From a virus, in UHGV virus genome UHGV-0197780: a DNA stretch of 52,279 nucleotides, one strand, 5' to 3'. A model generated the notes under the pieces. The model saw only the letters and a list, made by a program, of their open reading frames with translations. It was not told where the DNA came from and did not search any database. Of the stretch, positions 3,350 through 49,505 are shown piece by piece (within the stretch, counting starts at the first letter, position 1; every line of letters starts with the position of its first letter). The translations under genes and the position numbers were made by a program.

Positions 3350-3362
3350 GGTCAAAACTCGT

Positions 3363-4839: not shown

Positions 4840-4883
4840 GAAGCCCCCCTATTTTCTGTACGGTACTCATTGTCAAAACTCGA

Positions 4884-5438: not shown

Positions 5439-5440
5439 AC

Positions 5441-5662: not shown

Positions 5663-5674
5663 GCGCTGCTCCAC

Positions 5675-5737
5675 TAAGCACTGTAAATTTGAATTACAGT
5701 TTAATCAGTTTATTTCGATAGTGTCAAATCATTCGAT
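5675..5737. promoter_or_regulatory. OR-like divergent promoter/operator region
   Basis: On the minus strand, TTGACA-N17-TTAAAC reads as a PR-like promoter. The palindrome ACTGTAA-N7-TTACAGT is an operator-like site. TCGATA half-sites (atttcgatag, cattcgatatg) overlap the -35. The same TATCGATA core recurs at 6300. Confidence 0.5.
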
Positions 5738-6187: not shown

Positions 6188-6210
6188 AACAGCCTTCCCC
6201 CCCTTCATAA

Positions 6211-6238
6211 GCGCCGCCTTCGGGCGGTTTTTTTGTGC
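6211..6238 (+). terminator. rho-independent terminator after the CI-like gene
   Basis: The sequence gcgccgccttcgggcgg is followed by seven Ts. Confidence 0.6.
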
Positions 6239-6282
6239 CTGCTCCCCACCTCACATCCAATTCTGAAATTTAAATCATCAGT

Positions 6283-6312
6283 TTTAATTGACAGCTGTAG
6301 TTTATATCGATA
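6283..6312 (+). promoter_or_regulatory. pL-like early-left promoter with operator core
   Basis: TTGACA, a 17-bp spacer, then TAATAC. The spacer contains TATCGATA, the same core as the OR half-sites. Confidence 0.4.
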
Positions 6313-6459
6313 ATACTATCTCCGTCCTATGACGTCATCGAGGCAGGAAGCCCACGAAGTAGCTGCCGGCGGCATACGAAACACCGGATGAGATGACAGC
6401 AATATCAATCGCAGCAGGTTCAACGTTCGGCTGCCCGGCCTTAAGGGAAGGAAATAAGT

Positions 6460-6582
6460 ATGGATAAAGCATACGAAGACTATTTTGAAAACCTCTCTGA
6501 AGGAGAAGAGGCACTGAGTTTCAGCGAGTTTACCGCGGCACTTTCAGGTAAGCCGGCAGATTGCGCCTCTTCTGAAATGTAA
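6460..6582 (+). CDS. small acidic protein (40 aa), first gene of the early-left operon
   Basis: Preceded by GGAAGGAAATAAGT before the ATG. The translation is MDKAYEDYFENLSEGEEALSFSEF…. It is below the ORF-track length threshold. Confidence 0.3.
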   Translation: MDKAYEDYFENLSEGEEALSFSEFTAALSGKPADCASSEM

Positions 6583-22200: not shown

Positions 22201-24947
22201 TTTGCCTGAGCCAGACCAGAATCGAGAGCCTCATTGACCGAGGTGATCTCATCCGTGATGGTTTTATTCACGGCGGAGATCTTCCCGTCAACATCAGCCG
22301 TGATGCTTTTCGCCGATGCATCAATATCCTGGCTGACCTGCTTCGCCTGGTCTTCGGCTTCCTTACGCAGAGCTTCAGCGGTCTGCTCCAGTTCCTGCTG
22401 CGTATTGCGGATACCTTCCTGTGTTTCGCTAATGGTGCGCTGCGTTTCCTCCCAGGCAGCCGTATCCTTGATCGCGTCGGTCAGGTTTTCGTAGTAGTCA
22501 TCAAAGTTATCGCTGGCCATCCCCTGGACCCAGCCGGTCCACGGGCTTTCATTGCCAAGACGATCCACAAGGCGCGCCCGATACCAGAATTCTGCGCCCA
22601 TACTGAGGCCCATCTGCTGATAGCTTTTCCCCGGATAGGCCACGTCTGATAACGGCATTGGCGCACTGCCGTCCTGGTTTTTGCTGTACTGCAGTTCCGT
22701 GCGCAGCGTATCCCCGGAGCCGGTCGGGAACTCCCAGCTAACCTGGACTCCATGAACCAGCGAACGGGTTGCCAGCGCCAGCGGTGCCAGCGGCTCGCCG
22801 ACCTTGCCGGTCAGGGTTTTCTCTTCGGAATACGCCCAGCCGCTCGAGATCTCCGCCGCATTGATCGCGCGGACGCGAACCAGGTAACGACCGGCATAAA
22901 TGCCGCTGACCTCAAACGAGGTGGTCGAGCTGCGCGGCACATTAATCCAGTTCCCGTCGTTACGGCGCCACTGCGCCTCGTAGGCAATAGCGCCGCTGAC
23001 CGCTGACCAGTTAACCTGCATCGTTTCGACGCTGATCCCCTGATTCACGACCGAGCGGGATGTGATGACAATATCGTCAGGAGGTGACTGGTTGCCCGCC
23101 GGCAATACGCTAACCGGGCGCTGATCGATAATCGCGCCGGTATCGATGCGGGCGAATTTATCCGGGTCATGTGACACGCCGGTGATCGTGAGGGTGGCAT
23201 CGCCGTTCTCTTTTACCCCTGTGACCCGGTACTGCTGCAGAAAGAGGTCATTAGATTCTACGGCCCAGACGCATTCCCGTTCTGGCGTCTCACTGTAAGC
23301 CGTTGTGACCGTAATCTGCCGGCGTCCGTTAACGGCCTGGATGGTCCGGCTCTGTGAGATCCCGGATGGCAGGTTTAGCTGGAGGCGGTCGCCAGGTTTG
23401 GCATCCACATCACGATCCAGCGTAATCACCCGGCCATTCATCGCGCTGATCCGCCCGCCGTTGACCCGTCCGGCCAGCAACTCATCCGCCAGGGCAATGA
23501 TATAACCGGGTTGAGGAATGCGCCCGTCCAGCCCCACATCAAACTCAACGACCCGGTCTTTGTTGTTGGTCAGTATGCCCCACAGCCCCTTACGGTGGGC
23601 TTCGCTCTGGCGCGTACAGCCAATCGCGGTCATTTCGAGCTGGTTAAAACTGTAGCGGGAAACCAGTTCCGGGATAAACGCCGGCTCCATTGCATCAGCA
23701 TAAGCATTATCCGGATCAGACCAGGAAACCAGGGCGTTGGTGTACCGAACCTGGCTGCTGCTGCTCGAATAACGGGGTTTGCCGACAATATTGGCGCGCG
23801 TATAGGTAAAATCGACATCACGCGGCATATCAGCCTGCACAACAATCTGCTCACCGTTCCAGCAGGTCATGCCCCGGAAAATGGCGGCAAAGTCTCGCAG
23901 CACGGTGTAAGCATCGTTGCGTTCCTGGACGTAGACGTTACAGGTATAGCGCGGCTCCATGCCGTCACCACCGCGCCCGTCAGGAACCAGCTGATCGCAG
24001 TACTGTGCAATCTGGTACAGCGTCCATTTCGAAATATTGGCGCTGCTCAGACGATTACCGAGACCAAAACGGTCAGCTGTAACAATGTCGTAATAGATCC
24101 AGGCCGGGTTATCCGTCCAGGCCCATTTAAACCCGCCGGTCCAGACGCCGGTATATTCGCGGGTTTCCGGATTGTAGTTATCCGGCACACGAATCACGCG
24201 CCCACGCGGCTCACAGGAAATTTGCGGAATGGAGCCATTAAACTGGCTGGAGTCGAACTCGATATAAAGCAGCGCGGTGTTGGGATAACGCAGCTTCGCG
24301 TCAATCACTTCGGTATAGCTCTGCAGCGTCATCACGTCGCCAACTTTGACACTGTTTGCATCCGGAGAGATTTTACGCAGGCGTAGCGTCCAGGTACTGC
24401 CGGCATGGGGCAGATCAATACGATGGCTCCGCTCATAACCGGAGGTGGTTTTACCCGTGACAGCGGTTTCCAGCACCGTCTGCCAGGCGCCGCCGTCGGT
24501 CTGCAGGTCAATCGCATACTTGACGGTATTGCCCACCACGTCGCCATCATCTTCCTGTTTCATCAGGGACGGCCATTTCAGGCGGACACGAACGGCAGAA
24601 AGCTGGGTATTAGTAAAGGTATGGGTCCAGGCTGTCTTGCTGGAAACTTCCGTTCCTACACTGATTTCATTTTCAGTACCGGGAATACCCTGAATATAAG
24701 TCTGAGCCTGCGTGCCGGGGCGAAATTCCCAGGACACGCCACTGAAGTTTTGCGAACCATCAGCATTTTCAAGCGGGGTGCCATCAAGATAAATATCTTT
24801 CCCGGTTAAACCACCTGCAAATTCACCCTCACCTAATGCGAGCAGAATTTTGGCTTTCGCAACAGACTGTAAATCATCCGGCTGTTCCGTCGGTGTACGC
24901 TGCTTTGAGCCGCCACCCTTGCGCCCTTTAATTATGTTATTTGCCAT
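13260..24947 (-). CDS. giant host-specificity / central tail fibre protein (lambda J-like N- and C-terminal regions with a ~2800-aa insertion)
   Basis: The first ~1100 aa align with lambda J (…CYPNTAL…, VPDNYNP.TR.Y.G.W.G, QYCDQ.VPDG.GG.EPR.TCN…). The C-terminal ~250 aa resemble the J receptor-binding end. The middle holds more than 20 copies of a ~45-aa TVTQQGKDI…NL.TTNANVAKKAD repeat. There are at least 5 NP(S/T)FE…DDLVITDVTD beta-sandwich CBM-like modules. A ~300-aa module is duplicated at ~80% identity, visible at nucleotide level (15300-15600 vs 16850-17150). Confidence 0.8.
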   Translation of the reverse strand: MANNIIKGRKGGGSKQRTPTEQPDDLQSVAKAKILLALGEGEFAGGLTGKDIYLDGTPLENADGSQNFSGVSWEFRPGTQAQTYIQGIPGTENEISVGTEVSSKTAWTHTFTNTQLSAVRVRLKWPSLMKQEDDGDVVGNTVKYAIDLQTDGGAWQTVLETAVTGKTTSGYERSHRIDLPHAGSTWTLRLRKISPDANSVKVGDVMTLQSYTEVIDAKLRYPNTALLYIEFDSSQFNGSIPQISCEPRGRVIRVPDNYNPETREYTGVWTGGFKWAWTDNPAWIYYDIVTADRFGLGNRLSSANISKWTLYQIAQYCDQLVPDGRGGDGMEPRYTCNVYVQERNDAYTVLRDFAAIFRGMTCWNGEQIVVQADMPRDVDFTYTRANIVGKPRYSSSSSQVRYTNALVSWSDPDNAYADAMEPAFIPELVSRYSFNQLEMTAIGCTRQSEAHRKGLWGILTNNKDRVVEFDVGLDGRIPQPGYIIALADELLAGRVNGGRISAMNGRVITLDRDVDAKPGDRLQLNLPSGISQSRTIQAVNGRRQITVTTAYSETPERECVWAVESNDLFLQQYRVTGVKENGDATLTITGVSHDPDKFARIDTGAIIDQRPVSVLPAGNQSPPDDIVITSRSVVNQGISVETMQVNWSAVSGAIAYEAQWRRNDGNWINVPRSSTTSFEVSGIYAGRYLVRVRAINAAEISSGWAYSEEKTLTGKVGEPLAPLALATRSLVHGVQVSWEFPTGSGDTLRTELQYSKNQDGSAPMPLSDVAYPGKSYQQMGLSMGAEFWYRARLVDRLGNESPWTGWVQGMASDNFDDYYENLTDAIKDTAAWEETQRTISETQEGIRNTQQELEQTAEALRKEAEDQAKQVSQDIDASAKSITADVDGKISAVNKTITDEITSVNEALDSGLAQANKGVQEAKSAVADANKQIATVNKSLTDSITQVRQSVTDTAAEINATIDLEIARVSKTLADGDAALNAQIKTAENGLKQSLSQVNTTLTNAVKQETADRIADVNAKAAQAADELLAATQGIEASIESLTQVMKTADENLAREMSSLAAGANIQFDSQVIWHFNNQTTEGWTGSAGVPGVSQDGWLRPADSATDPYITSPGGLAVDGAAYRFIMLRFRKTGKPVWAGEIRWVSAGENFNNTKRYIVAEPEYADGVATLTVRDIPWTGNIDRIRLDLTNQQDASNFIEFDWIAVGRPAPGASTAALQDVRSTLSNALTAEAQARSTLAAQMRGSYDGSDLEKVTSGLLYQEKTARVTAISAEVKARESLQTQFNDNKAAVSGELSSLTTEQRAQASRIGGLETSLGKKADAAALTSLTQKVEQQGATLTSQGAALTSLTNRVGQTETGLAGTNEALSGLESTVTQQGDRITSQGQSITKLTSDLGTTNAALAKKAEAAAVTALTQQVEQNGQDIRSNTDSITSLSNQLVNGQPNSWSRRIYPVQLANAGTVPSFSDIRAVAPVVVDEVSDAAKLDFTSAGSYLIALYSCQVKVAADTTITMAPGNRIFDDTGAVFVNGVQVAWGNASWTTGSFELKVGWNTVEFLVNQWTGQAYINLGLKLSDKVAEMYSGLGVSALANAAGVLSSNVSQIGNDVVSNSQSITQLRNALTQTDANVASKADQTAMNSLTGRVEKTESGLTAANSNITSLSSSLSQQSKRGANLLPDGTFESYAVGHNLANNRAIVTTDDSHGGNKCIRVTRPNDYNANATDNTDTHIFSGFQVRDNAVFYMECWVKLDAKSTAMAENVQISVGLSLQYQDNSWQWPAVTRAAKDLSTAQWTKVSGYLKSTKSGIKQAMVRISIPNVSSVKAGNSFLIDDLVITEVTDAYNAQSTADANANAISTLDSTVSQQGDQITSQGNSITKLTNDLATTNNNVSKKADQSALSVLSGRVDQTESGLSSANSSITALNSSVRAGNATSGDLISNPTFDPEFSQMGFTVVSSSSEGVPANCPYAYVARIAARDHHPNFAAIPATLGDVYEMSALVACGTGSADFNLYLGTATRPSGSVGAPLSSGGNRKASATWQRVTWRFKITQGIVDRGFFRPFLQINQSSPFGTVWFVTDWHMRNVTAAQKVQDTADATAAAVDSLTTTVTQQGNLLTSTGNRTTQLENGLATTNAAVAKKADATAVQNLTNTVTQLGNDLTAANSAITKLTGNLANTDKALAQKADATALATLDTKVTQQGKTLESQSNSLTNLSNSLSQVAADIDASGKIPGNLVVNPSFERGLDGYIGQSAAASVVETSTPHGGTRALRVGVGYVSPGQYVSFVQGRTYEIGVWVKDLGATTDNGAGNNKLRISNSAGQPVFERPYNSGTIGSDWTLISGRWKATETAKLPVTLSNGLTAGSRCFDDFYVIDVTDSVKIDANASALSSLQNTVTQQGKDIASQSTSITDLKNNLDTTNANVAKKADAAALQTLQNTVTQQGKDIASASSSITSLQNNLSTTNANVAKKADATALSSLQNTVTQQGKDISASNSSIANLQASINRRTVFTVTSRGIGPSVKDGVFDESGNKLVSPGRSYTMITFKVNSDNSTSIDTSKTYDVFGSANNGKTMSDDIAALANGTYVCVLTYDEPAGNRASILAAMELLGGTAEVLNSLPYRGAYILLGRKGMKAGDGLELRAPTGGAADSYISTSVEFVNGIMSGLGAGGGVMMKADANASAISTLQNTVTQQGKDITSASSQITALQNNLNTTNSNVSKKADSTTLNALQNTVTSQGDALTSQGNRVTLLENTLTVGDNIVPNSAMLNNAQGWGGHATTVDGYPAVIDTAAWAPTSPKFSVTPGDILDFSLLCLAGVAINGLAWGIRFDGPSLTNNSVYVEALNYAAGEKKAVTGTITVPAGATTGYLQPYSRNAITLTIYNIKVTRRNAGTIANAKAIADLTNEVTQQGKDITSASSDISLLKNSLATTDANVAKKADSSALSSLQSTVNQQGTSISSIGNRTTSLENGLSTAQNNIARKADASALQDLRNTVTSQGGDLTAANSSITSLQASMNRRTVFTVTARGLGNSVTPGVFDESGKNLFSPGRSWALVTFAKQSDGSAVIATSKTYDVFGSANNGDTMSADIGALTSGTYVCVLTFDEPSGNRGRLLSALESLGGTSEVVNSLPYRGAYILLGRKGMKPGDGLELRAPTGGDATAHISTSVEFVNGIMMGLGAAGGVMMKADANASAITTLQNTVKTQGGNIDSLSSSITALENSLRSTNDTVSKKADTTAVSSLTGRVSQVENTITSQSQSITSLTSSINTISTQGANPWVDGTFESYSDGHVLGGGGTAVVVASQKFTGNMSLQVSRGANNNGNSDKQLGSWQSVREDAKFRFEFWAMMPADQAPSSGWTTLVGINSLNAAGQNSWQSAVTVSEAALGGRDKWVKFTGIASNNGGGRTRAVVWISTRGASGSGTPGYSLYIDDLVITDVTDAKAAQDASDATASAVSGLTARVTDAEGKITAQAQQQTALATKVDNANSRVDNMAKTLSDSQSTQASLNTSLQSQIDAQAAANIKNQTTLDNTIKSVASITSTQQTHATALEALATQQTTLTSSVGDLSASVQNTAKTVADVNGTVSSLWSMKVETVNGKNVGAGITLGSNGETSDMILYADRFSLFNRNNATAVPVMVAEGNELYIDTARIKNSSLTSTKIADGSITNAKIGHEIRSNDFVDGSRGWRIAKDGSSQFNNVIVRGAVYATDGWFQGTVYANHIEGDIGSFAINIAQHRTRKVPKATWQWFELARFRRQNFDQVINIRGGLLQTDSITIDGGAKLRAGMSYAPGADGGLNPGYLSYAMLLRGTGATSGGGSMELGIELMYETGGATRLLTAQESMNVDNMSFVVPAGTGDAVLRYGCYLDRNGQMVLTILSRFDAFAARNNNVIRGSST

Positions 24948-41391: not shown

Positions 41392-41750
41392 CGGGTTCTC
41401 TCTGTTGCTGTTTTCTTGCTGTGGCAGGTCCAGCACAATGACTCCAGATTAAAGTCATCATCGGTACCACCATGAGCTTTAGGAATGATGTGGTCGACAC
41501 TTGAAGCTTTCGTGGCAATACCGTCTCGCCTGCAGTTCTGACAAAGGTATTTATCCCTCTTCATGATACGGGCCCGTTTAATTTCCCACGGACGACCATA
41601 ACCACGTTCATGCCGAGTTTTTCCGGGCTGATAGTTACGCCAGCCATCACCGGCGTGTTGCTGCCGATGGATCTCACAGAACCCACTGACATCATTCGTT
41701 ACTGCCGTGCATCCTTTGTGCCGGCAAGGTCGTTTAGCGCGTGGAGGCAT
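41388..41750 (-). CDS. HNH endonuclease (terminase-associated, cos-type packaging)
   Basis: Cys/His clusters CRHKGC…C…H and HIIPKAHGG…N…CWTCH mark an HNH domain. The position upstream of terS fits HK97-like phages. Confidence 0.7.
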   Translation of the reverse strand: MPPRAKRPCRHKGCTAVTNDVSGFCEIHRQQHAGDGWRNYQPGKTRHERGYGRPWEIKRARIMKRDKYLCQNCRRDGIATKASSVDHIIPKAHGGTDDDFNLESLCWTCHSKKTATERTR

Positions 41751-41903
41751 AACTTTTTCCGAAGTTAGTGATAACGCAGTCGTTAACACCGTTTTGTGTT
41801 ACAGGGATGATGCCAGGGTGAACTTGGGTGAACTTGATGCCATATTCACCCCAATAAAAAGCCCCGCATAAGCGGGGCTGTAGATTCAGAAATATGGTTT
41901 TGG

Positions 41904-42128
41904 CTACTGGTAGGTATATGCGAAATGCCCTTCGATCTGAGATCTGACATCAACAGTTTCGTCTAACTTTAAGGAATCATAGCCCTTAATATGGAAATGA
42001 GGCTCATATGCATAAATCGTAATAAATGCATATGACCCTTCATCTCCCGTGAAAATCTCATATTTGACGCGAGAAAGACCGGCACCAACTAACATGTATG
42101 TATCCAGAAGCTTCTGGGTATTCATCAT
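41904..42128 (-). CDS. hypothetical 74-aa protein (AT-rich moron region)
   Basis: A clean ATG ATG start in low-GC DNA. Confidence 0.3.
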   Translation of the reverse strand: MMNTQKLLDTYMLVGAGLSRVKYEIFTGDEGSYAFITIYAYEPHFHIKGYDSLKLDETVDVRSQIEGHFAYTYQ

Positions 42129-42231
42129 CCATTCCTTTTCCTTTAAAAATCCTTATCAGCATACATGAATTCGATGGATGACGACTGCAATGAATTCTTG
42201 CAGGCTTCAAAAAAACCTCAACATCAGTAAG

Positions 42232-42420
42232 TTAATACCCATACAGCCCCCCAAATATGCCAAAAAATAAAGCAGAAAGCAGCCAGGCAAGTGCAGTCTT
42301 CTTCATTAGCACTCCGTAAAATGCTATAGACATTGCTAGACACATCGTTATAAAAACTGGCCACATAGTCAATAAAAAAAGCAAATAACCAAAAAACCCA
42401 CTATTAATAGTTATATTCAC
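42232..42420 (-). CDS. small hydrophobic 2-TM peptide (62 aa)
   Basis: GTG start. The peptide has two strongly hydrophobic segments. Confidence 0.25.
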   Translation of the reverse strand: MNITINSGFFGYLLFLLTMWPVFITMCLAMSIAFYGVLMKKTALAWLLSALFFGIFGGLYGY

Positions 42421-42999
42421 CGCTAACTTAACCCTGACGTTCTAAATATGAGCTGTATCGCATGACACCATGCAATCTGTTCTTTCTGGCGAACTATAGC
42501 ATTATCAAAGCCACTTAGTGAATGCTTGATGCCTTAGCCGCTGAGCTCCGTTAACTGATTTACACCCGCTACGCTTGTTATATCCGGAGTGTTGTCTAAA
42601 CTATCTAATGACTTTGCTCTGCCACGACAAAGTCCGTCGTTCTACCTGTGAGCTTAGGGATGAGCCACTTCCTGTAGTATCTGGCCTTCCATTTTTTCTC
42701 AAAACCAGTAGAAAAACATCCCGCAATCTGACTATACTCCTACATTGGCTGCCCCTGCAGCACCCCGTCAATCTGTCGGATTTACTCCACGGGGTTTTTT
42801 ATAACCTGAAACTGCTGGACAAAAGACTCCAAGAACTAAGCCCACCAGCAGCACATTTCCAGGATATCCATAAACAGGATACCTAAGAGTTGTTATGTCC
42901 TTCGAACATATAAGGCGCGTATGATGATTAGTTATATTCAAACCTGAGCTCATCAAGCCTTAATGGTTTTCTTATAAAAGTATTTTTGCATTAGATAAT

Positions 43000-43372
43000 G
43001 AGTATCTGCCCCTCGCACAATGCGCAAAGCATAGGGGAGGATTCATCGTAATCACCATTTCCATCGGTGTAATTATTAACCACCCAAAGAGTGTAATCAA
43101 TCGTGTCATCTCTGACAAGATTGATATTCCCAGCATTCTGTTCACCTCGTAAAATATACTTACCTTGCTTATCTTTTATACCATGAGAGAGAGTCCCACT
43201 CCTTTATTAAAATAATAGATAAAATCTTAAGTCCACCATCTGATACAAGTACTTCCAATGACAGTTTGTCACCTGAAGCTGGATCAGACATTCTTGCATA
43301 ACATTTTCTAATCACAACCAACCTACTCATTTTTGGGTAGGGTATAAGCAAGGCAGGGACTGAATTCAACAA
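43000..43372 (-). pseudogene. frameshifted gene remnant in AT-rich spacer
   Basis: A 67-codon ORF (43169-43372) is followed in the +1 frame by a further ~70 stop-free codons (…HGIKDKQGKYILRGEQNAGNINLVRDDTIDYTLWVVNNYTDGNGDYDESSPMLCALCEGQILII*). That length is unusual for 30% GC DNA. Confidence 0.25.
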
Positions 43373-43381
43373 GAAAATAAC

Positions 43382-43624
43382 CTATCGGGCTATCGCTTTA
43401 TAATAAGCCTGCCAGCGGTACTTATCCAATCTCAGTTGCCGCAAGCACTGAGTGCTTTCAATATCAGCCTGCAGATCTTCGTCGCTGTCCTTCGCGGCGT
43501 CACTTGCTTTGCACGGCGGGCTCATCAAATCCGGGGATGGAGTTGGCAGCATCGATGGCGCGCTGACGCAGCTGCACAGCATCATCATCAAACCTGCATA
43601 CAATACGATTCGGAGACTGAACAT
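43382..43624 (-). CDS. Rz1-like o-spanin lipoprotein, overlapping the 3' end of Rz in another frame
   Basis: A lipobox-like LCSC is followed by the Pro-rich segment [17 protein letters not shown]. It is out of frame with Rz. Confidence 0.4.
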   Translation of the reverse strand: MFSLRIVLYAGLMMMLCSCVSAPSMLPTPSPDLMSPPCKASDAAKDSDEDLQADIESTQCLRQLRLDKYRWQAYYKAIAR

Positions 43625-43850
43625 ATTTCACCACGTCACGGGTTATTGTTTTGTAGATGACCTTACCCGCTTCGTTAGCAGTAGCGGCCTTTTCCTCTAC
43701 AGGCTTAATGGTACTCTCGGCCTTCTCTCTCTTCTTTGAAGCTTGAGCATTGATGTGATCAGCGTGAGAACTCCAGCCTGAGCGCCACGAAATCACGTTA
43801 GAGGCCAGCAGGATTGTTATAGCGATGATAACGGCGGTTAAGCGACTCAT
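43500..43850 (-). CDS. Rz-like i-spanin
   Basis: An N-terminal TM is followed by a charged coiled coil. The ATG at 43850 overlaps the endolysin stop (ATGA) and has a GGGAG SD. Confidence 0.55.
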
Positions 43851-44350
43851 CTTTGCTCCCATAAACAAACTTCACGCTCAACTTCCCTCCGGGTAATAAG
43901 TCCTTTCCACTGCTTACCTTTGGCATAGGTCCAGCGACGTAGCTGATCACATGCCCCTTTCTGGTCACCCTGGTTGATTCTGCGCAGTAGCGTTGAGGTC
44001 CGAAAGTTACCAGCGCCGACGTTATAGGCGAACGAGTACAGAGCCCCACGCATCGTTTCGGGGATCGGCTTCTGGATGTATGGGTCAATCTGGCGGGCAA
44101 CGGTGTTCAGGTCTTTACTAAGCAGCGCGCGGCATTCAGCCTCGGTGTACCTCTTACCGAGCATTATGTCTTTGCCAGTGTGGCCATAGCAGACAGTCCA
44201 GACACCAACCACATCCTGATAGGGATCGTATCGCACACCCTCAAGGCCATCGTTACCGGTCGGGCCGGTGATGAGCGCTGAAGCAATGGCTATGGCTCCC
44301 CCGCCGACGGCAGCGATAACGCTATTCCTCAGCCTTGTTGACATAGCCAT
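43847..44350 (-). CDS. SAR endolysin (T4-lysozyme-like muramidase with signal-anchor-release domain)
   Basis: The N-terminus [18 protein letters not shown] is a Gly/Ala-rich SAR segment. The catalytic motif is E-x8-D-x5-T ([18 protein letters not shown]). Confidence 0.8.
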
Positions 44351-44591
44351 TGAGCCGGTCCTCTCGTTCTTTTCTTCGGTAATACCAGTTCACGCCGCAG
44401 GTAATAACGGTGCATGAGATACCGACAATGATTGCCCAGTCACTCAGGGTCAGCCCTGCAATTTTGTCGGCCAAAATCCATACCTCTGTTTTAGCTGTGT
44501 CAGCGTATGCCTTTGCGGAGACACCGCAGCCCGTCAGTGCGGTACCGGTGCCGTAGGAAAGTCTGCTGTATATGGTGCTCATTCTTGTCAT
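44322..44591 (-). CDS. holin with dual-start motif (MTRMST…), pinholin-like partner of the SAR endolysin
   Basis: A strong GGAGGTGAGG SD precedes the ATG at 44591. A second Met lies 3 codons later after an Arg, the S107/S105-like antiholin/holin arrangement. The protein has two TM segments and its end overlaps the endolysin start. Confidence 0.6.
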
Positions 44592-44771
44592 AACCTCACC
44601 TCCGCTGATTACGGATGGCGCTGTGTGCATGAAGGGGTCAGGCCCATCGGGCTGATTTGACAACGAGCCGTATCGATGATGATTCCCGTGAGCCTGAAAA
44701 AAGAAAGGCCACGCAAAGCGCAGCCTTCAAACGATGTTTTCCTTTGGTTACTGAATCGCCTGATTGATGGC

Positions 44772-44797: not shown

Positions 44798-45305
44798 ACA
44801 AAGTAGGCATTCTAGGTAGTAACGAAACGAAGGCATCCCTAATAGTCCGAGCTACCGATTTACCAGGAAGCATTCACTTTTGCCGTTACGTTCTATAAAC
44901 ATAGAAGGGCAACCGTAAAAGTAAACCCACTATGAAATATTCAATATGCTTAGTGACAGTGTGGTGCCGGGTGCCTCCCGGTGAGCATGCCCCAGTCGGC
45001 ATGGCCCGCGCTGCATTTACAGGTTTCTGTAACTGACTGGTCGCCCCTCCGCACAGGGGGATTCACCACATCAATACCTTATGATGGGAAGATTCTATAC
45101 GTCAATACCATAGGCGTATTGCTAAGCCACCAGCTATGCAGCAACTCCATCAGAAATAACCAGTTATCGAGGTAATGGCATTTTCAGAGCCCCCCGGATT
45201 ACATTAGGATGGTTTGGATAAAGGACTCAGCTGATTTAGCAACAAGCCGTATCCATAAATGAAAAGGCCGCCAGTACGGCGACCTTTGATTAGGATATAT
45301 AGAGA

Positions 45306-45713
45306 TTAGTGGACGACAATTTCCATCTTTTGCCCCAACGCTGATAGCGCTTTTTGGATCGTATCGATTTTGGTGCTGTGACCAAGAGACACGATGCGCT
45401 GCACTTCCTGTGGGCGCGTGTTAATCATGCGGGCGAGATCAGCATTGCTGGTGTTGGTGCTGACCAGACGGTTTAACAGCAATACTTTAGCTGCCACGCT
45501 GGCCGGAACCTCAACAAACGCATCACCTTCTGCTGATGGAGCGGGAATCTCCCGGCGGTCGTCAAAGTAAAAATCAAACGCCGTCACCAGGGCATCTTGC
45601 GCCATTTCTAACGCTTCCTCCCTGGTCTCTCCTCCCGTCATTGCCTCTGGGATATCCGGAAAGAATACCGCCCAGCCGGTTTCGTCATGCTCAAAAATTA
45701 CCGGGTATCGCAT
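45306..45713 (-). CDS. hicB: HicB antitoxin (RNase-H-like N-domain + C-terminal HTH)
   Basis: The N-terminus MRYPVIFEHDETGWAVFFPDIPEAMTGGETREEALEMAQDAL is the canonical HicB N-domain. Confidence 0.8.
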   Translation of the reverse strand: MRYPVIFEHDETGWAVFFPDIPEAMTGGETREEALEMAQDALVTAFDFYFDDRREIPAPSAEGDAFVEVPASVAAKVLLLNRLVSTNTSNADLARMINTRPQEVQRIVSLGHSTKIDTIQKALSALGQKMEIVVH

Positions 45714-45760
45714 ATTGATTAAGTGAACCTCCGCGAGTACCAGCCCCGAGGGGCTGGATT

Positions 45761-45934
45761 TTATTTGATACCGAGTTGCTTAAGAATTGCCTTCCTCAGC
45801 GGTTCCGGTATTTCCTTCCCCGGATGTCTCGGCATTACCGTTTGCTTGCCGTTGAGATAGATTTTCAAGTGGTTAGTACCATCTTTAAATTCTGCCCCTT
45901 GAGCTGCAAGCCAACGCCTCAACTCGCTTTGCTT
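45761..45934 (-). CDS. hicA: HicA mRNA-interferase toxin
   Basis: LNGKQTVMPRHPGKEIPEPLRKAILKQLGI is the HicA motif. The GTG start has a perfect GGAGGAGGAA SD. The listed ORF is extended upstream from a TTG. Confidence 0.75.
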   Translation of the reverse strand, partial: KQSELRRWLAAQGAEFKDGTNHLKIYLNGKQTVMPRHPGKEIPEPLRKAILKQLGIK

Positions 45935-45970
45935 CACTTCCTCCTCCTGTCTGTTTAACTTGAGACAAGT

Positions 45971-46022
45971 ATAAACATTTTTGTTTATAGCATCAAGCAA
46001 AGAATAAACATTTTTGTTTATA
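45971..46022. promoter_or_regulatory. two copies of the palindrome ATAAACAtttttGTTTAT upstream of hicAB (candidate HicB operator/promoter)
   Basis: Exact 18-bp palindromes lie at 45971-45988 and 46004-46021. Confidence 0.5.
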
Positions 46023-46333
46023 TAAATAACAGAGGGAGCTATTGCCCAACACCTCTACGCCACGGTGAGGCGAAGCAAATCAATTATGCGATATACGACG
46101 ATGTGACAAGGGTACTGATGCAATGCATCTCGCGAATACCCCCTGTCGTATCGCCGGAAAGCAAAAACCCCGCCGAGCGGCAGGGTTCTAATGGTTAAGC
46201 GGTGTGTCGAAGTGACCACTCTTAACAGATTACGATAGTTTTTGCGTACGCGTTAGTGTTTTTATATGATATTAGAAAAATCAACACGGAAGTACAAAAC
46301 GTGAGCGAGATCATAAAATTAAGAGGGCTGATG

Positions 46334-48085
46334 AGTTCAAAAACCATAGAGCCGTTCATCCGACACATTAGGTTTCCTTTCTATAAAAATCTTGAAGAGT
46401 TCAGTGTAATTAATTTTAATTATCCTATCACAGCATTAGTAGGACAAAACGGAACAAATAAGAGTTCGGTTTTAAGGGCCCTCTATGGCTCTCCTAATAA
46501 CTACTCTCTTGGTAGCTTGTGGTTTTCCACTGACATTGATGAAATAAAAGATGATGGAAGATCAAGATTCATATATGGTTATTTCGATTATTCAATCAAA
46601 GAAGTTGTCGAAGTAATTAAAACAAGGATCGTTGACCCTGATGATCCTGATCTTTGGGAAACATCTAGACCACTTGCAGGTGATGGCATGAAAAAAATGC
46701 CAAAAAATATTGTTTCCCCAAATCAACAAAAGTCGCGATGGAAACAAATTGATAAATTAGTTACCTATATCGACTTCAGGGCATCAATAAGTGCTTTTGA
46801 CAAATTTTTTTACCACTCTGACTTTAATCTTTATCCTAAGAAAACTTTTTTACGTAAAAGAAGCCACATATTAAAAGATGTAATTGAAAACAATTCATCC
46901 AGCTGCAAACCTTTCAAGGGTAAAAAGGAGAGGTTATATAATAACGAACTTCTTTCCAAAGAGAAAGTTGAAATTATAAGCCATATTTTAGGTCGAACTT
47001 ATAAAAGCATCAGACTAGTGGAGCATGCCCTCTTCACTAATGATAAAGCATCTACAGTTATACTGGAATCAAACAGTCTTAACTATTCTGAAGCCTTTGC
47101 AGGCAGTGGTGAATTTGCAGTAACTTTATTGGTTAATCAGATAATAAACGCCCCAAATGCTTCTTTAATCTTATTAGATGAACCAGAAGTTTCGCTCCAT
47201 CCTGCTGCACAAATAAGACTCATGGAATTTTTAAACCAAATTTGTCTTAAAAACAAACATCAGGTTGTTATTTCGACCCATTCGTCATCAATTGTAAGGG
47301 ATCTTCCTCAAGAGTCTATAAAACTTTTTACATTAAATTCCACAACAGGCAAAGTAAGTATTCTTGAAAATGTTAGTCCAGAGGAGGCATTTTTCACTCT
47401 CGGTGACAGACTGTCAAAAAAAACAATTTTCGTCGAAGATAAACTCGCTCAGAAATTCGTTGAAAAGGCTTTAAAAACTGGTGGTTCAGCTTTAGTCAAT
47501 ACATTTGATATAATTTACTGTCCTGCTGGAGCAACCACTTTACTAGGTAATATTGCTGTCCCGTTATTTTTATCCAATGTAACTAATGCAGTATTTTTAT
47601 TGGATGGAGATCAAAAAACACTTACTGACTTTATAAAGTCCACCCAAATTCCAGAAGACCAAGATCCTGCTCTATCTGAAATATTAAAAAGCATCCTTGG
47701 GTGTGAAATAAAAATTCCGACAGATGGAAATGGCGGCAAACCTAATGAGAAGCAAAAAAAGCTTCTTCATCGTGGATTTATTGATTTCTCATATAATTTC
47801 ATAGGTTATTTACCGGTAATAAACCCAGAGGTTTTTTTAATCGAAAACCTACCTGACTTTTATTTAGATTTAATCAAAGACAAGGACACAGCAGGCCTAT
47901 CACCCAAAGAAATAACCGTGGAAATATGTAAAAATGATATTGGGAGCAATGAAATTACATCAGATGATATATTTGCCACGCAAATCAGAATCCTATCAAA
48001 AATACCTGATAATCATCCTGCATTTATAGAAACAAGAGAGATGCTGAAATTTTTTCTTGAACATGGTATGATCAGGGATAAGTAA
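46334..48085 (+). CDS. OLD-family nuclease: N-terminal ABC-type ATPase + C-terminal TOPRIM (P2 Old / PARIS AriAB-like)
   Basis: ATPase motifs are Walker A ALVGQNGTNKSSVLRAL, Walker B/D-loop LILLDEPEVSLHP and H-loop VISTHS. The C-terminal TOPRIM-like motifs are TIFVEDK (Glu) and VFLLDGDQ (DxD). The ATG at 46334 gives a 583-aa product. The gene is AT-rich, on the opposite strand to the phage genes, and ends 4 nt before the MTase gene. Confidence 0.65.
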   Translation, partial: SSKTIEPFIRHIRFPFYKNLEEFSVINFNYPITALVGQNGTNKSSVLRALYGSPNNYSLGSLWFSTDIDEIKDDGRSRFIYGYFDYSIKEVVEVIKTRIVDPDDPDLWETSRPLAGDGMKKMPKNIVSPNQQKSRWKQIDKLVTYIDFRASISAFDKFFYHSDFNLYPKKTFLRKRSHILKDVIENNSSSCKPFKGKKERLYNNELLSKEKVEIISHILGRTYKSIRLVEHALFTNDKASTVILESNSLNYSEAFAGSGEFAVTLLVNQIINAPNASLILLDEPEVSLHPAAQIRLMEFLNQICLKNKHQVVISTHSSSIVRDLPQESIKLFTLNSTTGKVSILENVSPEEAFFTLGDRLSKKTIFVEDKLAQKFVEKALKTGGSALVNTFDIIYCPAGATTLLGNIAVPLFLSNVTNAVFLLDGDQKTLTDFIKSTQIPEDQDPALSEILKSILGCEIKIPTDGNGGKPNEKQKKLLHRGFIDFSYNFIGYLPVINPEVFLIENLPDFYLDLIKDKDTAGLSPKEITVEICKNDIGSNEITSDDIFATQIRILSKIPDNHPAFIETREMLKFFLEHGMIRDK

Positions 48086-48089
48086 AGTT

Positions 48090-49139
48090 ATGGCGGGTTT
48101 TATAATGAGCAAAAAGATCAGAGTTTTCGATTTTTTCTCTGGCTGCGGTGGCACTAGCCAAGGTCTAAAAACTGCTGGTTGTGAGATTGTTTTTGGCCTA
48201 GATTTTGATTATGACTCAAGCGAAACCTTTAAGGCTAACAATCCTGATGCCGTATTCATCAATGATGACATTAGGTCAGTTGATGTTGCTGACATCTCTC
48301 AATTAGTTGAAACGGCAAAAAAAGATGCAAAGATTCTGTTCTGCGGGTGCGCTCCATGCCAACCTTTTTCAAAGCAAAATCAGAATAAAACCACTTCAGA
48401 TCCCAGAAGAGGTTTGTTATCAGAATTCGGTCGCTTTGTCGAATTCTACGAACCCGATTATGTATTGATAGAAAATGTGCCTGGTTTACAAAAAGTGGAT
48501 GTAAATGACGGTCCTCTCTATGGTTTTATTTCTATTCTAAAAAATAGGAATTACAATCTTGTTTATGGCGTTATTCCAGCATTATGGTATGGTGTTCCGC
48601 AAACGCGTGAAAGATTTGTTTTAATGGCCTCTCTTGAATCTCAAATTCATTTACCGGAGCGCACTCATAATGGAACTGATATTCCATTCGCTACGGTTAG
48701 AGATTGGATTGGTAACATACCCTCTATTGAAGCCGGGGAATCTCATCCGTTGGTGAAAGACCATGTTAGTGCAAAACTTTCAGAGCTGAATTTAAAACGA
48801 ATTAGATGCACCCCTGAAGGTAAAGGACGAGAATATTGGCCAAGAGAACTTTTGCTTGAATGCCACAAGAAGCATACAGGTCATAGCGACGTTTATGGGC
48901 GTTTGGCATGGGATAAACCAGCAAGTGGGTTAACTACACGATGCATTAGTTACTCAAACGGCCGGTTTGGACATCCCGAACAAGACAGAGCTATTTCTGT
49001 TCGGGAGGCGGCCCTACTTCAAACGTTTCCAATAGATTACATTTTTAAAGGCTCCATGCTATCTAAGGCGAAACAAATAGGTAATGCTGTTCCGCCAAAA
49101 ATGGCTGAGTCAATAGGAAATGTTTTTATCAATATTTAA
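48090..49139 (+). CDS. DNA (cytosine-5)-methyltransferase
   Basis: Motif I FDFFSGCGG, motif IV GCAPCQPFS (PC catalytic Cys), ENVPG, QTRERF and motif X GNAVPP. Confidence 0.85.
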   Translation: MAGFIMSKKIRVFDFFSGCGGTSQGLKTAGCEIVFGLDFDYDSSETFKANNPDAVFINDDIRSVDVADISQLVETAKKDAKILFCGCAPCQPFSKQNQNKTTSDPRRGLLSEFGRFVEFYEPDYVLIENVPGLQKVDVNDGPLYGFISILKNRNYNLVYGVIPALWYGVPQTRERFVLMASLESQIHLPERTHNGTDIPFATVRDWIGNIPSIEAGESHPLVKDHVSAKLSELNLKRIRCTPEGKGREYWPRELLLECHKKHTGHSDVYGRLAWDKPASGLTTRCISYSNGRFGHPEQDRAISVREAALLQTFPIDYIFKGSMLSKAKQIGNAVPPKMAESIGNVFINI

Positions 49140-49159
49140 GCTGGAGCCCTAGCTCCAGC
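49140..49159. terminator. bidirectional hairpin terminator between convergent MTase and Q genes
   Basis: GCTGGAGCcctaGCTCCAGC is a perfect 8-bp stem. Confidence 0.5.
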
Positions 49160-49163
49160 TAGT

Positions 49164-49505
49164 CTAAAGCATCATTAAAACCCCTTCAATAAACCCCATG
49201 GCATTATGCAATTCTTTCCTGATGGTACCATCAGAGCATTTAAGTTTCTTAGCGATGCTACGTAAGGAGATTCCGATAATAAAATGAGCAATAATTAACT
49301 CATACTCTTCTGGCTTATATTTCCGCAATCGCGCTACACAACCGTCAATCATGATACCTTCATCATCATCGCATTGCTGGCGTGTTTTCTTTCCATGAGG
49401 TAGCAAACCTTTAAACCCAGCAGCAATGGGTTGCCAGTCAACACCACTATTGTCAGATGCCGCCCAAGCTCCCCAGCGGTCCAATATTTCGTACATATCT
49501 CTCAT
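49164..49505 (-). CDS. late antiterminator Q-like protein
   Basis: The size and a Cys-containing motif (…DGCVARLRKYKPEEYELIIAHF…) fit the phage 82/21-type Q family. A GAGGAG SD precedes the start. It lies upstream of the lysis genes. Confidence 0.55.
   Translation of the reverse strand: MRDMYEILDRWGAWAASDNSGVDWQPIAAGFKGLLPHGKKTRQQCDDDEGIMIDGCVARLRKYKPEEYELIIAHFIIGISLRSIAKKLKCSDGTIRKELHNAMGFIEGVLMML

Follow-up and report, generated by a model that had tools for sequence, protein, structure and literature searches.

Genes and flanking elements of the cassette

The stretch of DNA analyzed here (the window: UHGV-0197780, 52,279 nt in full) is a Klebsiella prophage that carries a two-gene cassette just after the late-gene activator Q. 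The relevant features of the region are as follows.

43847..44350, minus strand: lysozyme gene
44322..44663, minus strand: holin gene
46093..46270, minus strand: conserved noncoding block at the left edge of the cassette (88–98% identity to phage and prophage stretches; hairpin and T-run)
46242..46292, plus strand: candidate cassette promoter and ribosome-binding site, read from the sequence
46301..48085, plus strand: nuclease gene of the OLD family (ABC-ATPase/TOPRIM), encoding 594 aa when read from GTG 46301 (open reading frame list; Pfam AAA_21/AAA_15)
48090..49139, plus strand: gene for the C5 DNA cytosine methyltransferase, 349 aa (PF00145, TIGR00675, PADLOC MTase_II, motifs)
49164..49505, minus strand: antiterminator Q (PF06530, 1.6e-46), which bounds the cargo slot on the right

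The open reading frames occupy 46256..48085 and 48090..49139, in agreement with an earlier note on this DNA. The nuclease frame is open upstream to GTG 46256 (plus strand, 609 aa); GTG 46301 is the start used in database homologs and by NCBI, and a Klebsiella pneumoniae protein annotated as ‘ATP-dependent nuclease’, also 594 aa long, is 100% identical to the window nuclease. For the methyltransferase, NCBI places the start at an ATG 15 nt further in (344 aa). The two genes are spaced by 4 nt (TAA AGTT ATG). As the earlier note observed, they are AT-rich (GC content of 0.33–0.41 versus ~0.50 on either side) and occupy the interval from Q to the lysis genes in antisense orientation. Q is convergent with the methyltransferase gene, their stop codons being 24 nt apart, and prophages of E. 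coli, Hafnia and Klebsiella have the same junction of Q and methylase. An Rfam scan covering the window matched STnc100 alone.

The left-edge block is 88–98% identical to unannotated stretches in Klebsiella, Pectobacterium and Citrobacter phages and in E. coli prophages. Its hairpin (46185–46168) with the adjoining T-run, as read from the sequence, has the typical form of an intrinsic terminator. The block is probably a unit of the phage backbone comprising the late promoter, a short leader and a tR'-like terminator; it lies outside the cassette and marks the cassette boundary. The earlier note had put the pR'-qut region ~4.5 kb from Q. Instead, the likely late promoter/terminator is found ~2.9 kb from Q, at 46160–46270, and the cassette appears to be placed between Q and the late promoter rather than inside the late transcript. 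Related phages have different antisense genes in this position after Q. In lambdoid prophages of Klebsiella and E. coli the interval between Q and the late promoter can be regarded as a cargo site for antisense accessory genes. The low GC content and the slot shared with other antisense cargo identify the cassette as mobile cargo, in this case a candidate defense module. Its candidate promoter consists of TTGCGT (46242–46247), a 17-nt spacer and TATGAT (46265–46270), and a candidate ribosome-binding site, GGAAG (46288–46292), precedes GTG 46301 by 8 nt. The promoter scan did not report this candidate, which falls under the threshold of the tool (the −35 hexamer agrees at 3/6 positions).

Judged by its sequence, the second gene qualifies as a C5 DNA methyltransferase of the PF00145/Dcm superfamily. 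It matches PF00145 (4.7e-55) over profile positions 1–321 of 324, TIGR00675 above its cut-off (2.6e-41) and PADLOC MTase_II (2.6e-86). Its catalytic motifs are complete, including I (FSGCGG), IV (PCQ), VI (ENV), VIII (QTRER), IX and X (GNAVP), with the catalytic Cys within PCQ at 48354–48362. The description of a full-motif C5 enzyme tightly coupled to the nuclease gene therefore holds. One source labels the enzyme ‘M.HgiDII’. Palindrome counts over the whole window revealed no depleted palindrome that contains cytosine.

Domain architecture and family placement of the nuclease

The domains and motifs of the nuclease map to the following positions (residues in 594-aa numbering unless stated otherwise).

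46433..46471, plus strand: Walker A/P-loop (ALVGQNGTNKSSV; Lys54), from the alignment, coordinates checked by translation
46478..47077, plus strand: family-specific ATPase insertions, about residues 60–259, with many invariant columns in the 42-sequence alignment
47078..47287, plus strand: ABC signature (YSEAFAGSGEF), Walker B (LLDEPE) and H-loop (THS), from the alignment and the match to TsOLD 6p74
47408..47710, plus strand: TOPRIM core
47711..48082, plus strand: C-terminal helical region past the TOPRIM core, from the alignments and the helices of the structure model

Residues 43–347 match Pfam AAA_21/AAA_15. In the alignment of 42 homologs, with identity down to 41%, Walker A and B, the signature, the H-loop and the TOPRIM Glu and DxD are invariant, and the ATPase and TOPRIM catalytic motifs remain so in every genomic context examined. 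Invariant positions include G48, N50, G51, N53 and K54 of the Walker A core GQNGTNKSS, Y262–E271, D293, E294 and H327 from the signature to the H-loop, and P509-E510, K536 and Q561 in the C-terminal helical region. The TOPRIM Glu is E379 (with D380, in FVEDK; 47435–47440) after strand 1, and the DxD is D435-G-D437 (LLDGDQ; 47603–47611) after strand 3. The comparable helical region of OLD nucleases suggests that the C-terminal region might have a catalytic role. The ATPase insertions contain the conserved stretches WFST..D.I, RFIYGY..VEVIK.RI, DPDYWE.SRP and DFR..ISAFDK.FYH; searched alone against PADLOC profiles, this stretch matched no family. The insertions are candidates for dimerization or nucleic-acid recognition, and no separate DNA-recognition domain is evident in the nuclease.

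The AlphaFold2 (AF2) model of the full-length protein (pLDDT 87.9) has TsOLD (6p74), GajA and the retron Eco8 effector as top Foldseek matches, and the modeled C-terminal domain matches the TOPRIM regions of TsOLD and BpOLD. The sequence match to TsOLD 6p74 covers Walker A and Walker B and is best over 47078..47287. Taken together, sequence and model place the protein among ABC-ATPase/TOPRIM fusions, OLD-family in a broad sense, with an N-terminal ABC ATPase and a C-terminal TOPRIM fold. The architecture, the OLD-like size and the conserved catalytic residues proposed in the earlier note are thereby supported. At the sequence level, however, the only relatives of the TOPRIM domain are HEC-04/IbfA and the retron type I-B effectors. 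Pfam gave zero matches for residues 361–609 (609-aa numbering) even at E ≤ 10, and no NCBIfam model matched the C-terminal 231 aa. In the comparison with profile models, TOPRIM was recognized through the HEC-04 and I-B models, DUF4435 and AriB were not matched, and the PADLOC Old and GajA matches were confined to the ATPase part, that of Old to the Walker B region. Neither the listed PADLOC matches of the full protein and its parts nor Pfam included any restriction endonuclease family.

The nuclease resembles Class 1 OLD proteins (P2 Old, Thermus scotoductus OLD 6P74, Vibrio cholerae OLD) in size and architecture, has its best PDB sequence match among them and, like P2 Old, is phage-borne. In contrast to them, its ATPase insertions are unrelated by sequence and it lacks a Pfam TOPRIM match. 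Class 1 is defined by a stand-alone gene without a conserved neighbor. Because the window family has a C5 methyltransferase neighbor in 74 of 77 genome loci and 60 of 60 viral loci, the Class 1 assignment of the earlier note fails. So does its alternative, fused PARIS: DUF4435 and AriB were not matched, and the models matched for AriA are generic ATPase models. PARIS (Class 4), split or fused, is rejected since neither an AriB DUF4435-type TOPRIM nor a separate DUF4435 gene next door was found. GajA (Class 2), the retron Eco8 effector (Class 3) and PARIS AriA/AriB share the ABC ATPase plus TOPRIM logic and are among the top structural matches; GajA exemplifies an OLD nuclease acting as a site-specific DNA nickase (PMC8136825). 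Yet no UvrD/PcrA-like helicase GajB adjoins the gene in the window or in loci L001–L014, excluding Gabija. Retron type I-B is rejected as well: there is no reverse transcriptase among the neighbors, Rfam found no msr/msd in the window, and the I-B effector match (4.7e-28, second best in PADLOC) is partial. In place of such components, the family has a conserved C5 methyltransferase partner.

The best PADLOC match (1.4e-35) is HEC-04/IbfA, a single-gene ABC ATPase–TOPRIM defense (Payne et al. 2024 preprint; PMC12111858). It aligns residues 222–472 (609-aa numbering) with profile positions 153–397 of 494, and the TOPRIM stretch alone still matches positions 310–397. The Glu-to-DxD spacing of 56/58 residues equals that of the HEC-04 sites E319, D375 and D377 mutated in published work, and both proteins are associated with methylation-based systems. 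However, only about half of the profile is matched, leaving out the N-terminal ATPase part with the insertions and the C-terminal tail, the window nuclease is ~100 aa longer, and HEC-04/IbfA acts alone, with no obligate methyltransferase partner. We therefore consider the nuclease a separate family, a branch related to HEC-04/IbfA.

Linkage of the nuclease and the methyltransferase

The nuclease family is large (569 clusters at 50% identity, E ≤ 1e-30) and is found in Proteobacteria, Actinomycetota, Bacteroidota, Firmicutes and phages. We surveyed 80 genomes of different species, 77 of which had usable flanks and were counted. In 74 of them, the nuclease has a C5 methyltransferase no more than 6 kb away: directly downstream in 40, directly upstream in 6 and at a distance of 0.3–4.8 kb in 28. 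All 60 nontruncated IMG/VR loci have a C5 methyltransferase next to the nuclease or nearby, whether in tandem, upstream or convergent. The linkage is reciprocal, as orthologs of the window methyltransferase adjoin ATPase homologs, which lie upstream of them. The earlier note would have been refuted had nuclease homologs never occurred together with a methyltransferase, and these counts decisively show the opposite. Even for distant homologs in Pseudomonas, Microbulbifer, Duganella and Oceanospirillum, a PF00145 gene is directly downstream in 4 of 4 unrelated nonphage neighborhoods. Gene order and orientation vary among loci, and the pair is equally conserved at nonphage chromosomal sites from Pseudomonas to Actinomycetota. 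Methylase and nuclease identities drop together, from 100% to about 40–55%, and the recognition region is conserved among the partnered methylases. The commonest arrangement is a bare two-gene island without any other nuclease. The earlier note held that such a pairing is not a described defense architecture, and indeed we found no publication, PADLOC model or NCBIfam model describing it.

The remaining contexts are more varied. Three genome loci have no methylase; in one of these, type IV (methyl-dependent) enzymes adjoin the nuclease. Vsr is encoded in the nuclease operon in 18 of 80 loci, and operons of Bacteroidota and Firmicutes have the order methylase, GHKL (MutL-like), ABC/TOPRIM, Vsr; most loci, including that of the window, have neither Vsr nor the GHKL protein. 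A nuclease homolog comes after a complete M.HpaII–R.HpaII pair in Flavobacteriia and after a SmaI-like restriction-modification (R-M) pair in one actinomycete, and one homolog resides inside a type I R-M locus. The partner methylases in the HpaII- and SmaI-like loci share only 25–32% identity with the window methylase. Overall, nuclease homologs pair with several unrelated C5 methylase subfamilies. A broken nuclease next to an intact methylase occurs in two loci, and the reverse only in one metagenome bin.

The ‘M.HgiDII’ label suggests a comparison with GHKL/MORC-type R-M systems (R.HgiDII, R.NmeAIP-like). Related Bacteroidota methylases are found in operons with GHKL and Hypoth_Ymh proteins and Vsr, contexts treated in the searched text of Iyer et al. 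2008 (PMC2292703) and Orlowski & Bujnicki 2008 (PMC2441816), which makes no mention of an ABC/TOPRIM partner. These operons also hold a homolog of the window nuclease. The window cassette differs in having neither the GHKL protein nor Vsr.

Possible roles of the pair

Of the two interpretations offered in the earlier note, the one we favor, with about an even chance of being right, is that of a methylation-protected, ATP-dependent R-M-like mobile defense module. The methyltransferase and the nuclease are co-inherited as a mobile unit, as in R-M systems, and linkage that survives changes of order and orientation in a site-hopping two-gene island is a signature of such systems. Vsr repairs damage caused by deamination of 5-methylcytosine, and its presence in the nuclease operons supports the view that the cytosine methylation is real. 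The gene-decay pattern (two nuclease breaks against one methylase break) is at most weak evidence for such a module. In such a module, expressed in the lysogen from its own promoter, the methyltransferase would place 5-methylcytosine on lysogen and prophage DNA at some motif. The ABC ATPase head, probably a dimer, would bind and hydrolyze ATP and control the metal-dependent C-terminal TOPRIM nuclease, which would nick or cut incoming DNA without the methyl mark. Methylation might be sensed by the nuclease itself or via the methyltransferase. Placed between Q and the late promoter, the cassette would protect the lysogen from superinfecting phages and plasmids. Inherited as one unit in many bacterial phyla and in phages, it most likely functions as an uncharacterized R-M-like defense, a candidate addition to the known systems.

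Several observations weigh against this R-M-like reading. The nuclease belongs to no recognized restriction endonuclease family, and we know of no TOPRIM or OLD-family enzyme with methylation-sensitive restriction endonuclease activity. A homolog that follows a complete HpaII- or SmaI-like pair cannot be the sole restriction enzyme of that locus; relatives beside such systems, or beside type IV enzymes without a methylase, complicate the reading, plausible as it is. The apparent lack of a separate DNA-recognition domain, the three methylase-free loci and the undepleted cytosine-containing palindromes of the window also count against it. The nuclease gene precedes the methylase without a visible control element, an order that would be risky on entry into a new host. 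Moreover, the characterized relatives are abortive-infection effectors: PARIS AriB cuts tRNA (PMC11464382), as does P2 Old according to a 2026 preprint (bioRxiv 10.64898/2026.07.10.737580). HEC-04/IbfA, the closest sequence relative, defends alone without a methylase (bioRxiv 10.1101/2024.01.29.577857; PMC12111858).

A more specific form of the R-M-like reading, which is possible although we lean against it, is that the TOPRIM (OLD-type) nuclease reads 5-methylcytosine as ‘self’ and represents a new kind of ATP-dependent restriction enzyme. Reading could be direct and largely sequence-independent, or a DNMT1-like methyltransferase could serve as the specificity subunit; either would explain the pairing with unrelated C5 methylases. 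If true, OLD nucleases would gain a fifth genomic class with this family, and R-M systems their first TOPRIM-based example. Neither an OLD-family nuclease dependent on a DNA methyltransferase nor a restriction enzyme with a TOPRIM active site is known to us. OLD-family ABC/TOPRIM nucleases are now central to phage-defense research (Gabija, PARIS, retron Eco8, P2 Old), and whether they can act as methylation-sensing restriction enzymes could be addressed with a compact, easily cloned two-gene module. Current annotation tools leave the pair as an ‘ATP-dependent nuclease’ and an ‘orphan Dcm’.

Other systems also couple a methyltransferase to an ATP-using effector. In type III R-M (Mod plus ATP-dependent Res), however, Res combines an SF2 helicase and a PD-(D/E)xK nuclease, and Mod modifies adenine at N6. 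ABC ATPase/TOPRIM components occur in MADS and many BREX loci, according to the introduction of bioRxiv 10.64898/2026.07.10.737580 and passages of PMC12839542, and the window nuclease weakly matches the NCBIfam MAD3 model (9.3e-4). Nevertheless, MADS and BREX are large multigene systems with adenine methylases, whereas the window system has two genes and a C5 enzyme.

It might be argued that the nuclease serves abortive infection or acts as a ‘backup’ effector linked to methylation systems, with the methyltransferase as a guarded partner or antidote rather than the source of a classical protective mark. Here the ABC ATPase would sense an infection cue (such as unmodified replicating DNA, lost methylase activity, or a phage factor directed against restriction or methylation), and the TOPRIM nuclease would then attack host tRNA or all DNA, causing death or arrest. 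OLD-ABC/TOPRIM modules are repeatedly embedded in methylation-based systems and have been interpreted as backup suicidal effectors (PMC12839542), HEC-04 was discovered within Hma loci (bioRxiv 10.1101/2024.01.29.577857), and PARIS, WonAB and P2 Old work via translation or tRNA (PMC11464382, PMC12137116, bioRxiv 10.64898/2026.07.10.737580). The homologs beside HpaII-like, SmaI-like, type I and type IV systems fit this idea, as does the restriction of sequence-level TOPRIM matches to HEC-04 and retron I-B effectors. However, HEC-04, PARIS and Old need no dedicated methylase and are embedded facultatively, whereas here the association is near-obligate, and the prevailing two-gene islands contain no other nuclease to back up. 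We also know of no phage inhibitor of C5 methyltransferases that could act as a trigger. On balance, we regard a backup effector as the main rival reading, rather unlikely but deserving serious consideration.

Two further explanations fare worse. The nuclease/ATPase could be an accessory protein that handles by-products of cytosine methylation (T:G mismatches from 5-methylcytosine deamination, trapped methyltransferase–DNA adducts or the ends left by another enzyme), analogous to the help that MutS (an ABC ATPase) and MutL (GHKL) give to Vsr, and would then not be a defense effector. The operons combining methylase, GHKL, ABC/TOPRIM and Vsr suggest such a role, and the MutL/Vsr analogy for GHKL partners already appears in the searched text of Iyer et al. 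2008 (PMC2292703); the variety of methylase partners looks as if the modification, not the site, matters. Since most loci lack Vsr and GHKL, a mobile cassette in a phage accessory-gene slot suits conflict systems better than repair, and the closest characterized relatives are all defense proteins, we find this role improbable. The other option, also raised in the earlier note, is that of two independent morons traveling together, an orphan anti-restriction methylase and a stand-alone OLD-type exclusion gene. Orphan methylases are frequent in phages, related prophages have further Dam/Dcm genes in the early region, and HEC-04/IbfA and P2 Old act alone. Given the linkage counts, however, this explanation is close to refuted: the genes, nearly contiguous in the window, diverge in step and are kept as a unit in several orders and orientations across phyla, at chromosomal sites outside phages as well as within them.

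The gene pair and its two products

The window is a lambdoid prophage in reverse orientation, its terminase, portal, tail and lysis functions being encoded on the minus strand; assemblies of Klebsiella pneumoniae and prophage contigs of IMG/VR contain it at 99-100% identity. The interval between the late-gene antiterminator Q and the lysis genes holds two open reading frames (ORFs) on the plus strand:

43847-44350, minus strand, lysozyme gene, paired with the holin gene
44322-44663, minus strand, holin gene, one of the lysis pair bounding the Q-to-lysis interval
46256-48085, plus strand, nuclease ORF, open for 609 aa, between Q and holin/lysozyme
48090-49139, plus strand, C5 methyltransferase ORF, 349 aa, 4 nt after the nuclease ORF
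49164-49505, minus strand, Q (PF06530, 1.6e-46)

Database versions of the nuclease start at GTG 46301, which has a GGAAG 8 nt ahead of it, and are 594 aa long (P0001, a K. pneumoniae protein, is 100% identical). GC content is 0.33-0.41 across the gene pair versus about 0.50 on both flanks. ORFs, Pfam matches and GC content together confirm the structural details of the earlier note, namely two plus-strand ORFs separated by 4 nt, AT-rich and antisense between Q and holin.

Pfam recognized only an ABC-type ATPase in the nuclease (AAA_21 and AAA_15, residues 43-347) and had no match in the last 250 residues, and NCBIfam offered no specific model and nothing for the C-terminal third. The TOPRIM assignment therefore rests on structure prediction and on the defence-system models of PADLOC. 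The best PADLOC matches were HEC-04, a single-gene ABC ATPase-TOPRIM defence (1.4e-35), and the 'ATPase-Toprim' effector of type I-B retrons (4.7e-28), both reaching about 100 residues beyond the ATPase. Matches to the models of Old, GajA, PtuA and AriA were confined to the ATPase part, and the insertion-rich stretch at residues ~60-259 had no PADLOC match. When the C-terminal 235 residues were searched by themselves, the only PADLOC models hit were HEC-04 (profile positions 310-397) and the effector of I-B retrons. For the AlphaFold2 model of the full-length protein (pLDDT 87.9), the best full-length PDB matches were Thermus scotoductus OLD, GajA and the effector of retron Eco8.

We aligned 42 nuclease homologues, down to 41% identity (594-aa numbering). 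Invariant in the ATPase are Walker A (G48, N50, G51, N53, K54), the YSEAFAGSGE signature, Walker B (D293, E294) and H327; invariant in the C-terminal part are E379-D380, D435-G-D437, P509-E510, K536 and Q561. Conserved TOPRIM catalytic residues, anticipated by the earlier note, are thus found as E379, D435 and D437. Glu and DxD lie 56/58 residues apart, just as E319 does from D375 and D377 in HEC-04, where mutating these residues abolished defence (bioRxiv 10.1101/2024.01.29.577857).

From profile matches and the predicted fold we conclude that the nuclease is an OLD-family ABC-ATPase/TOPRIM fusion and, by sequence similarity, that it represents a distinct branch with HEC-04/IbfA and the retron I-B effectors as nearest relatives. 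It had previously been read as a Class 1 OLD or fused PARIS nuclease. The ABC ATPase with TOPRIM residues holds, but both assignments fail: the nuclease is not a fused PARIS because DUF4435 signal is absent, and Class 1 OLD has no conserved neighbour, whereas here a C5 methyltransferase is conserved. Gabija is ruled out by the absence of a helicase neighbour, and a retron effector by the absence of a reverse transcriptase neighbour and a partial HMM match. Type III restriction-modification is likewise ruled out, as the cassette pairs an ABC/TOPRIM protein with a C5 enzyme. WonAB is a different system, in which the OLD-ABC ATPase is combined with a PD-(D/E)xK nuclease, and so is the OLD-like gene adjoining PluTI, which is Gabija.

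The methyltransferase (METHYLTRANSFERASE) matches PF00145 across the whole model (4.7e-55), exceeds the model cut-off of TIGR00675 and has motifs I, IV (PCQ), VI (ENV), VIII, IX and X. Among solved structures, the catalytic domain of eukaryotic DNMT1 is far nearer (4e-37, in two stretches that include the region after the TRD) than M.HaeIII or M.HhaI (1e-17 to 1e-13). One source names a 99% identical protein 'Modification methylase HgiDII', a label that is only an automated best-hit name. Motif avoidance did not point to a target: across the 52 kb of the window, none of the 4- and 6-bp palindromes with a cytosine shows clear depletion; all of them occur at about the expected frequency, and the HgiDII site GTCGAC occurs 8 times. 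The target-recognition region of the partnered methylases is common to Proteobacteria and Actinomycetota and largely also to Bacteroidota.

Linkage of nuclease and methylase across genomes

Nuclease homologues in E. coli (61% identity) are likewise antisense between Q and holin, and 3 nt downstream of them follows a methyltransferase of 67% identity. In Pseudomonas, Microbulbifer, Duganella and Oceanospirillum, four distant homologues (43-45% identity) have ordinary chromosomal surroundings, and the next gene downstream is in each case a PF00145 member. Scanning a single genome of each species gave 80 loci from Proteobacteria, Actinomycetota, Bacteroidota, Firmicutes, Acidobacteriota and others, 77 of them with usable flanks. 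The coupling of the two genes noted earlier recurs widely: a C5 methyltransferase lies within 6 kb in 74 of the 77 (40 directly downstream, 6 directly upstream and 28 at 0.3-4.8 kb, in most cases in the same operon) and is adjacent or close in all 60 non-truncated IMG/VR loci. The IMG/VR arrangement is directly downstream in 49/60 and otherwise convergent or upstream; Q adjoins the methylase in 21/60. Searching reciprocally from the methylase, we likewise found the nuclease as neighbour in Yersinia, Burkholderia and Hafnia-type prophages.

Gene decay events are too few to tell for or against restriction-modification: two broken nucleases versus one broken methylase, the latter in a metagenome bin. 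In a K. quasipneumoniae prophage (L101, 4001-5781) the nuclease gene is split into 381 aa and 164 aa, and the adjacent methyltransferase is intact. Some E. coli prophages carry a short PF01555 (N6/N4 methylase) fragment of 92-110 aa directly beside the nuclease start (L004, 5534-5866; L005, 5534-5812), perhaps because the cassette inserted into an older methylase gene of the phage or close to one.

The nuclease family is sizeable, since a profile search of 1.84 billion representatives returned 569 clusters at E<=1e-30. The cassette is frequent in Klebsiella and Enterobacter assemblies, with one methylase variant on 394 contigs. The E. coli alleles are rare (18/5426 complete genomes; one lies at 1516329-1519163 of NZ_CP116067.1), and the deposited phage genomes in INPHARED contain no close nuclease homologue. 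NCBI names the products 'ATP-dependent nuclease' and 'DNA cytosine methyltransferase'.

More elaborate surroundings also occur. Bacteroidota, Firmicutes and some Proteobacteria have operons of methylase, GHKL ATPase, ABC/TOPRIM protein and Vsr, in which the GHKL partner is either HATPase_c_3 plus Hypoth_Ymh or a HEF_HK/Response_reg_2 protein. These partners correspond to the 'putative restriction enzymes' R.NmeAIP and R.HgiDII (Orlowski and Bujnicki, PMC2441816) and to the paraMORC systems of Iyer et al. (PMC2292703); the searchable text of these two papers makes no mention of the ABC/TOPRIM partner. In five Flavobacteriia (L056, L057, L066, L074, L089) the nuclease homologue overlaps the R.HpaII stop codon and follows an M.HpaII-like methylase; R.HpaII was detected by Pfam in L056 (RE_HpaII, 5.4e-143) and inferred in the other four from equal methylase-to-ATPase spacing. 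The L056 operon (2438-6530; M.HpaII-like, R.HpaII, ABC/TOPRIM, with overlapping stop/start codons) is a complete type II system with a nuclease homologue appended. One actinomycete has a SmaI-like enzyme between methylase and ATPase. The methylase is absent from three loci. Two of these are L052 (4292-5475 and 9337-10977) and L063 (558-5130); one homologue has as neighbours type IV (methyl-dependent) enzymes resembling AspBHI and Mrr, together with a Response_reg_2 protein, and the other has an HNH_2 protein and a GHKL protein resembling sacsin. The nuclease catalytic residues are invariant across all genomic contexts examined.

Possible modes of action

The commonest form of the module is a bare mobile two-gene island, in which linkage outlasts changes of order and orientation; that two morons merely travel together is accordingly very improbable. 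Vsr is encoded in 18 of the 80 loci, which shows that genomic DNA is indeed modified by the methylase. Given these islands, their persistent linkage and the presence of Vsr, restriction-modification logic fits best, and we give it about an even chance. In this reading, 5-methylcytosine placed by the methylase would identify self DNA, and DNA lacking it would be attacked by the TOPRIM nuclease under ATP control. GajA provides a precedent of an OLD nuclease able to act as a site-specific DNA nickase (PMC8136825). Because the nuclease associates with unrelated C5 methylases, methylation might be read in one of two ways, as the data suggest: the methylase could serve as specificity subunit, as in type III systems, or the modification itself could be sensed.

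The main rival, an abortive-infection or backup effector, is possible but rather doubtful. PARIS, WonAB, HEC-04/IbfA and P2 Old (2026 preprint) are triggered suicidal effectors, often tRNA-cutting; characterised ABC/TOPRIM and OLD-ABC modules are frequently embedded in methylation-based systems, and the HpaII, SmaI and type IV contexts would fit such a role. However, the methylase partner is near-obligate, and many two-gene islands have nothing to back up. A repair-type accessory role of the nuclease we regard as quite unlikely.

In line with the earlier note, no ABC/TOPRIM nuclease with a dedicated C5 methyltransferase (Dcm) was found in PADLOC, NCBIfam or the searched literature other than Krishnan et al. 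2020, where a prior in silico mention is possible. That work is reportedly the source of the broader idea that OLD-ABC modules occur in 'RM-like' systems. The parts are of known kinds; what would be new is their conserved combination. The cassette, with its putative function, lends itself to testing as a candidate TOPRIM-based restriction system or a candidate fifth class of OLD nucleases.

A probable cargo slot between Q and the lysis genes

The left edge of the cassette borders a conserved block (46093-46270) of ~110-180 nt of non-coding DNA. It recurs without annotation, at 88-98% identity, in many phages of Klebsiella, Pectobacterium and Citrobacter and in prophages of E. coli. The block is mosaic, its upstream half being common to the Klebsiella phage and its downstream half to E. 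coli SCU-308. Read by eye on the minus strand, it has a terminator-like hairpin (46185-46168; 7 bp, GC-rich) with TTTTTGCTTT after it. On the plus strand, TTGCGT-17-TATGAT (46242-46270) resembles a sigma-70 promoter and could on its sequence drive the cassette; it too was read by eye and is below the scan threshold. The promoter/terminator scan did not report the by-eye sites near 46160-46270. The tRNA scan of the block found no tRNA, and Rfam matched only STnc100, further downstream.

Other antisense genes fill the stretch from Q to the block in related phages, which suggests a cargo hotspot: Klebsiella phage ST846-OXA48phi9.1 has two (173 and 289 aa; L095, 2692-4084) and an E. coli SCU-308 prophage one (237 aa; L096, 3202-3915). 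We infer that the block is a late promoter/short leader/terminator unit and that the cassette occupies the slot between it and Q, so that the cassette would lie outside the late transcript. Judged from the block, the pR'-qut region is displaced from Q by ~2.9 kb, not by the ~4.5 kb proposed before.

Two further features lie between block and holin:

45306-46000, minus strand, HicAB module in late-gene orientation (HicA toxin 45761-46000, HicB antitoxin 45306-45713)
44917-45102, minus strand, STnc100 sRNA match just upstream of holin (Rfam 78.3 bits, gathering score 47)

HicAB, with 81% DNA identity to the HicB-like region of Cronobacter phage ENT39118, looks like a second cargo piece in the Q-to-lysis interval. 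The STnc100 match may be a late-operon leader RNA; terminator-like hairpins lie near it at 44797-44780 and 44728-44704. Downstream of the lysis/spanin genes, an AT-rich stretch (41750-43400, GC 0.38-0.43) with only short ORFs (50-80 aa) may be another cargo or remnant region. The tail-gene region contains a single 3895-aa ORF (13260-24947, minus strand), unusually long for a lambdoid tail/host-specificity protein.
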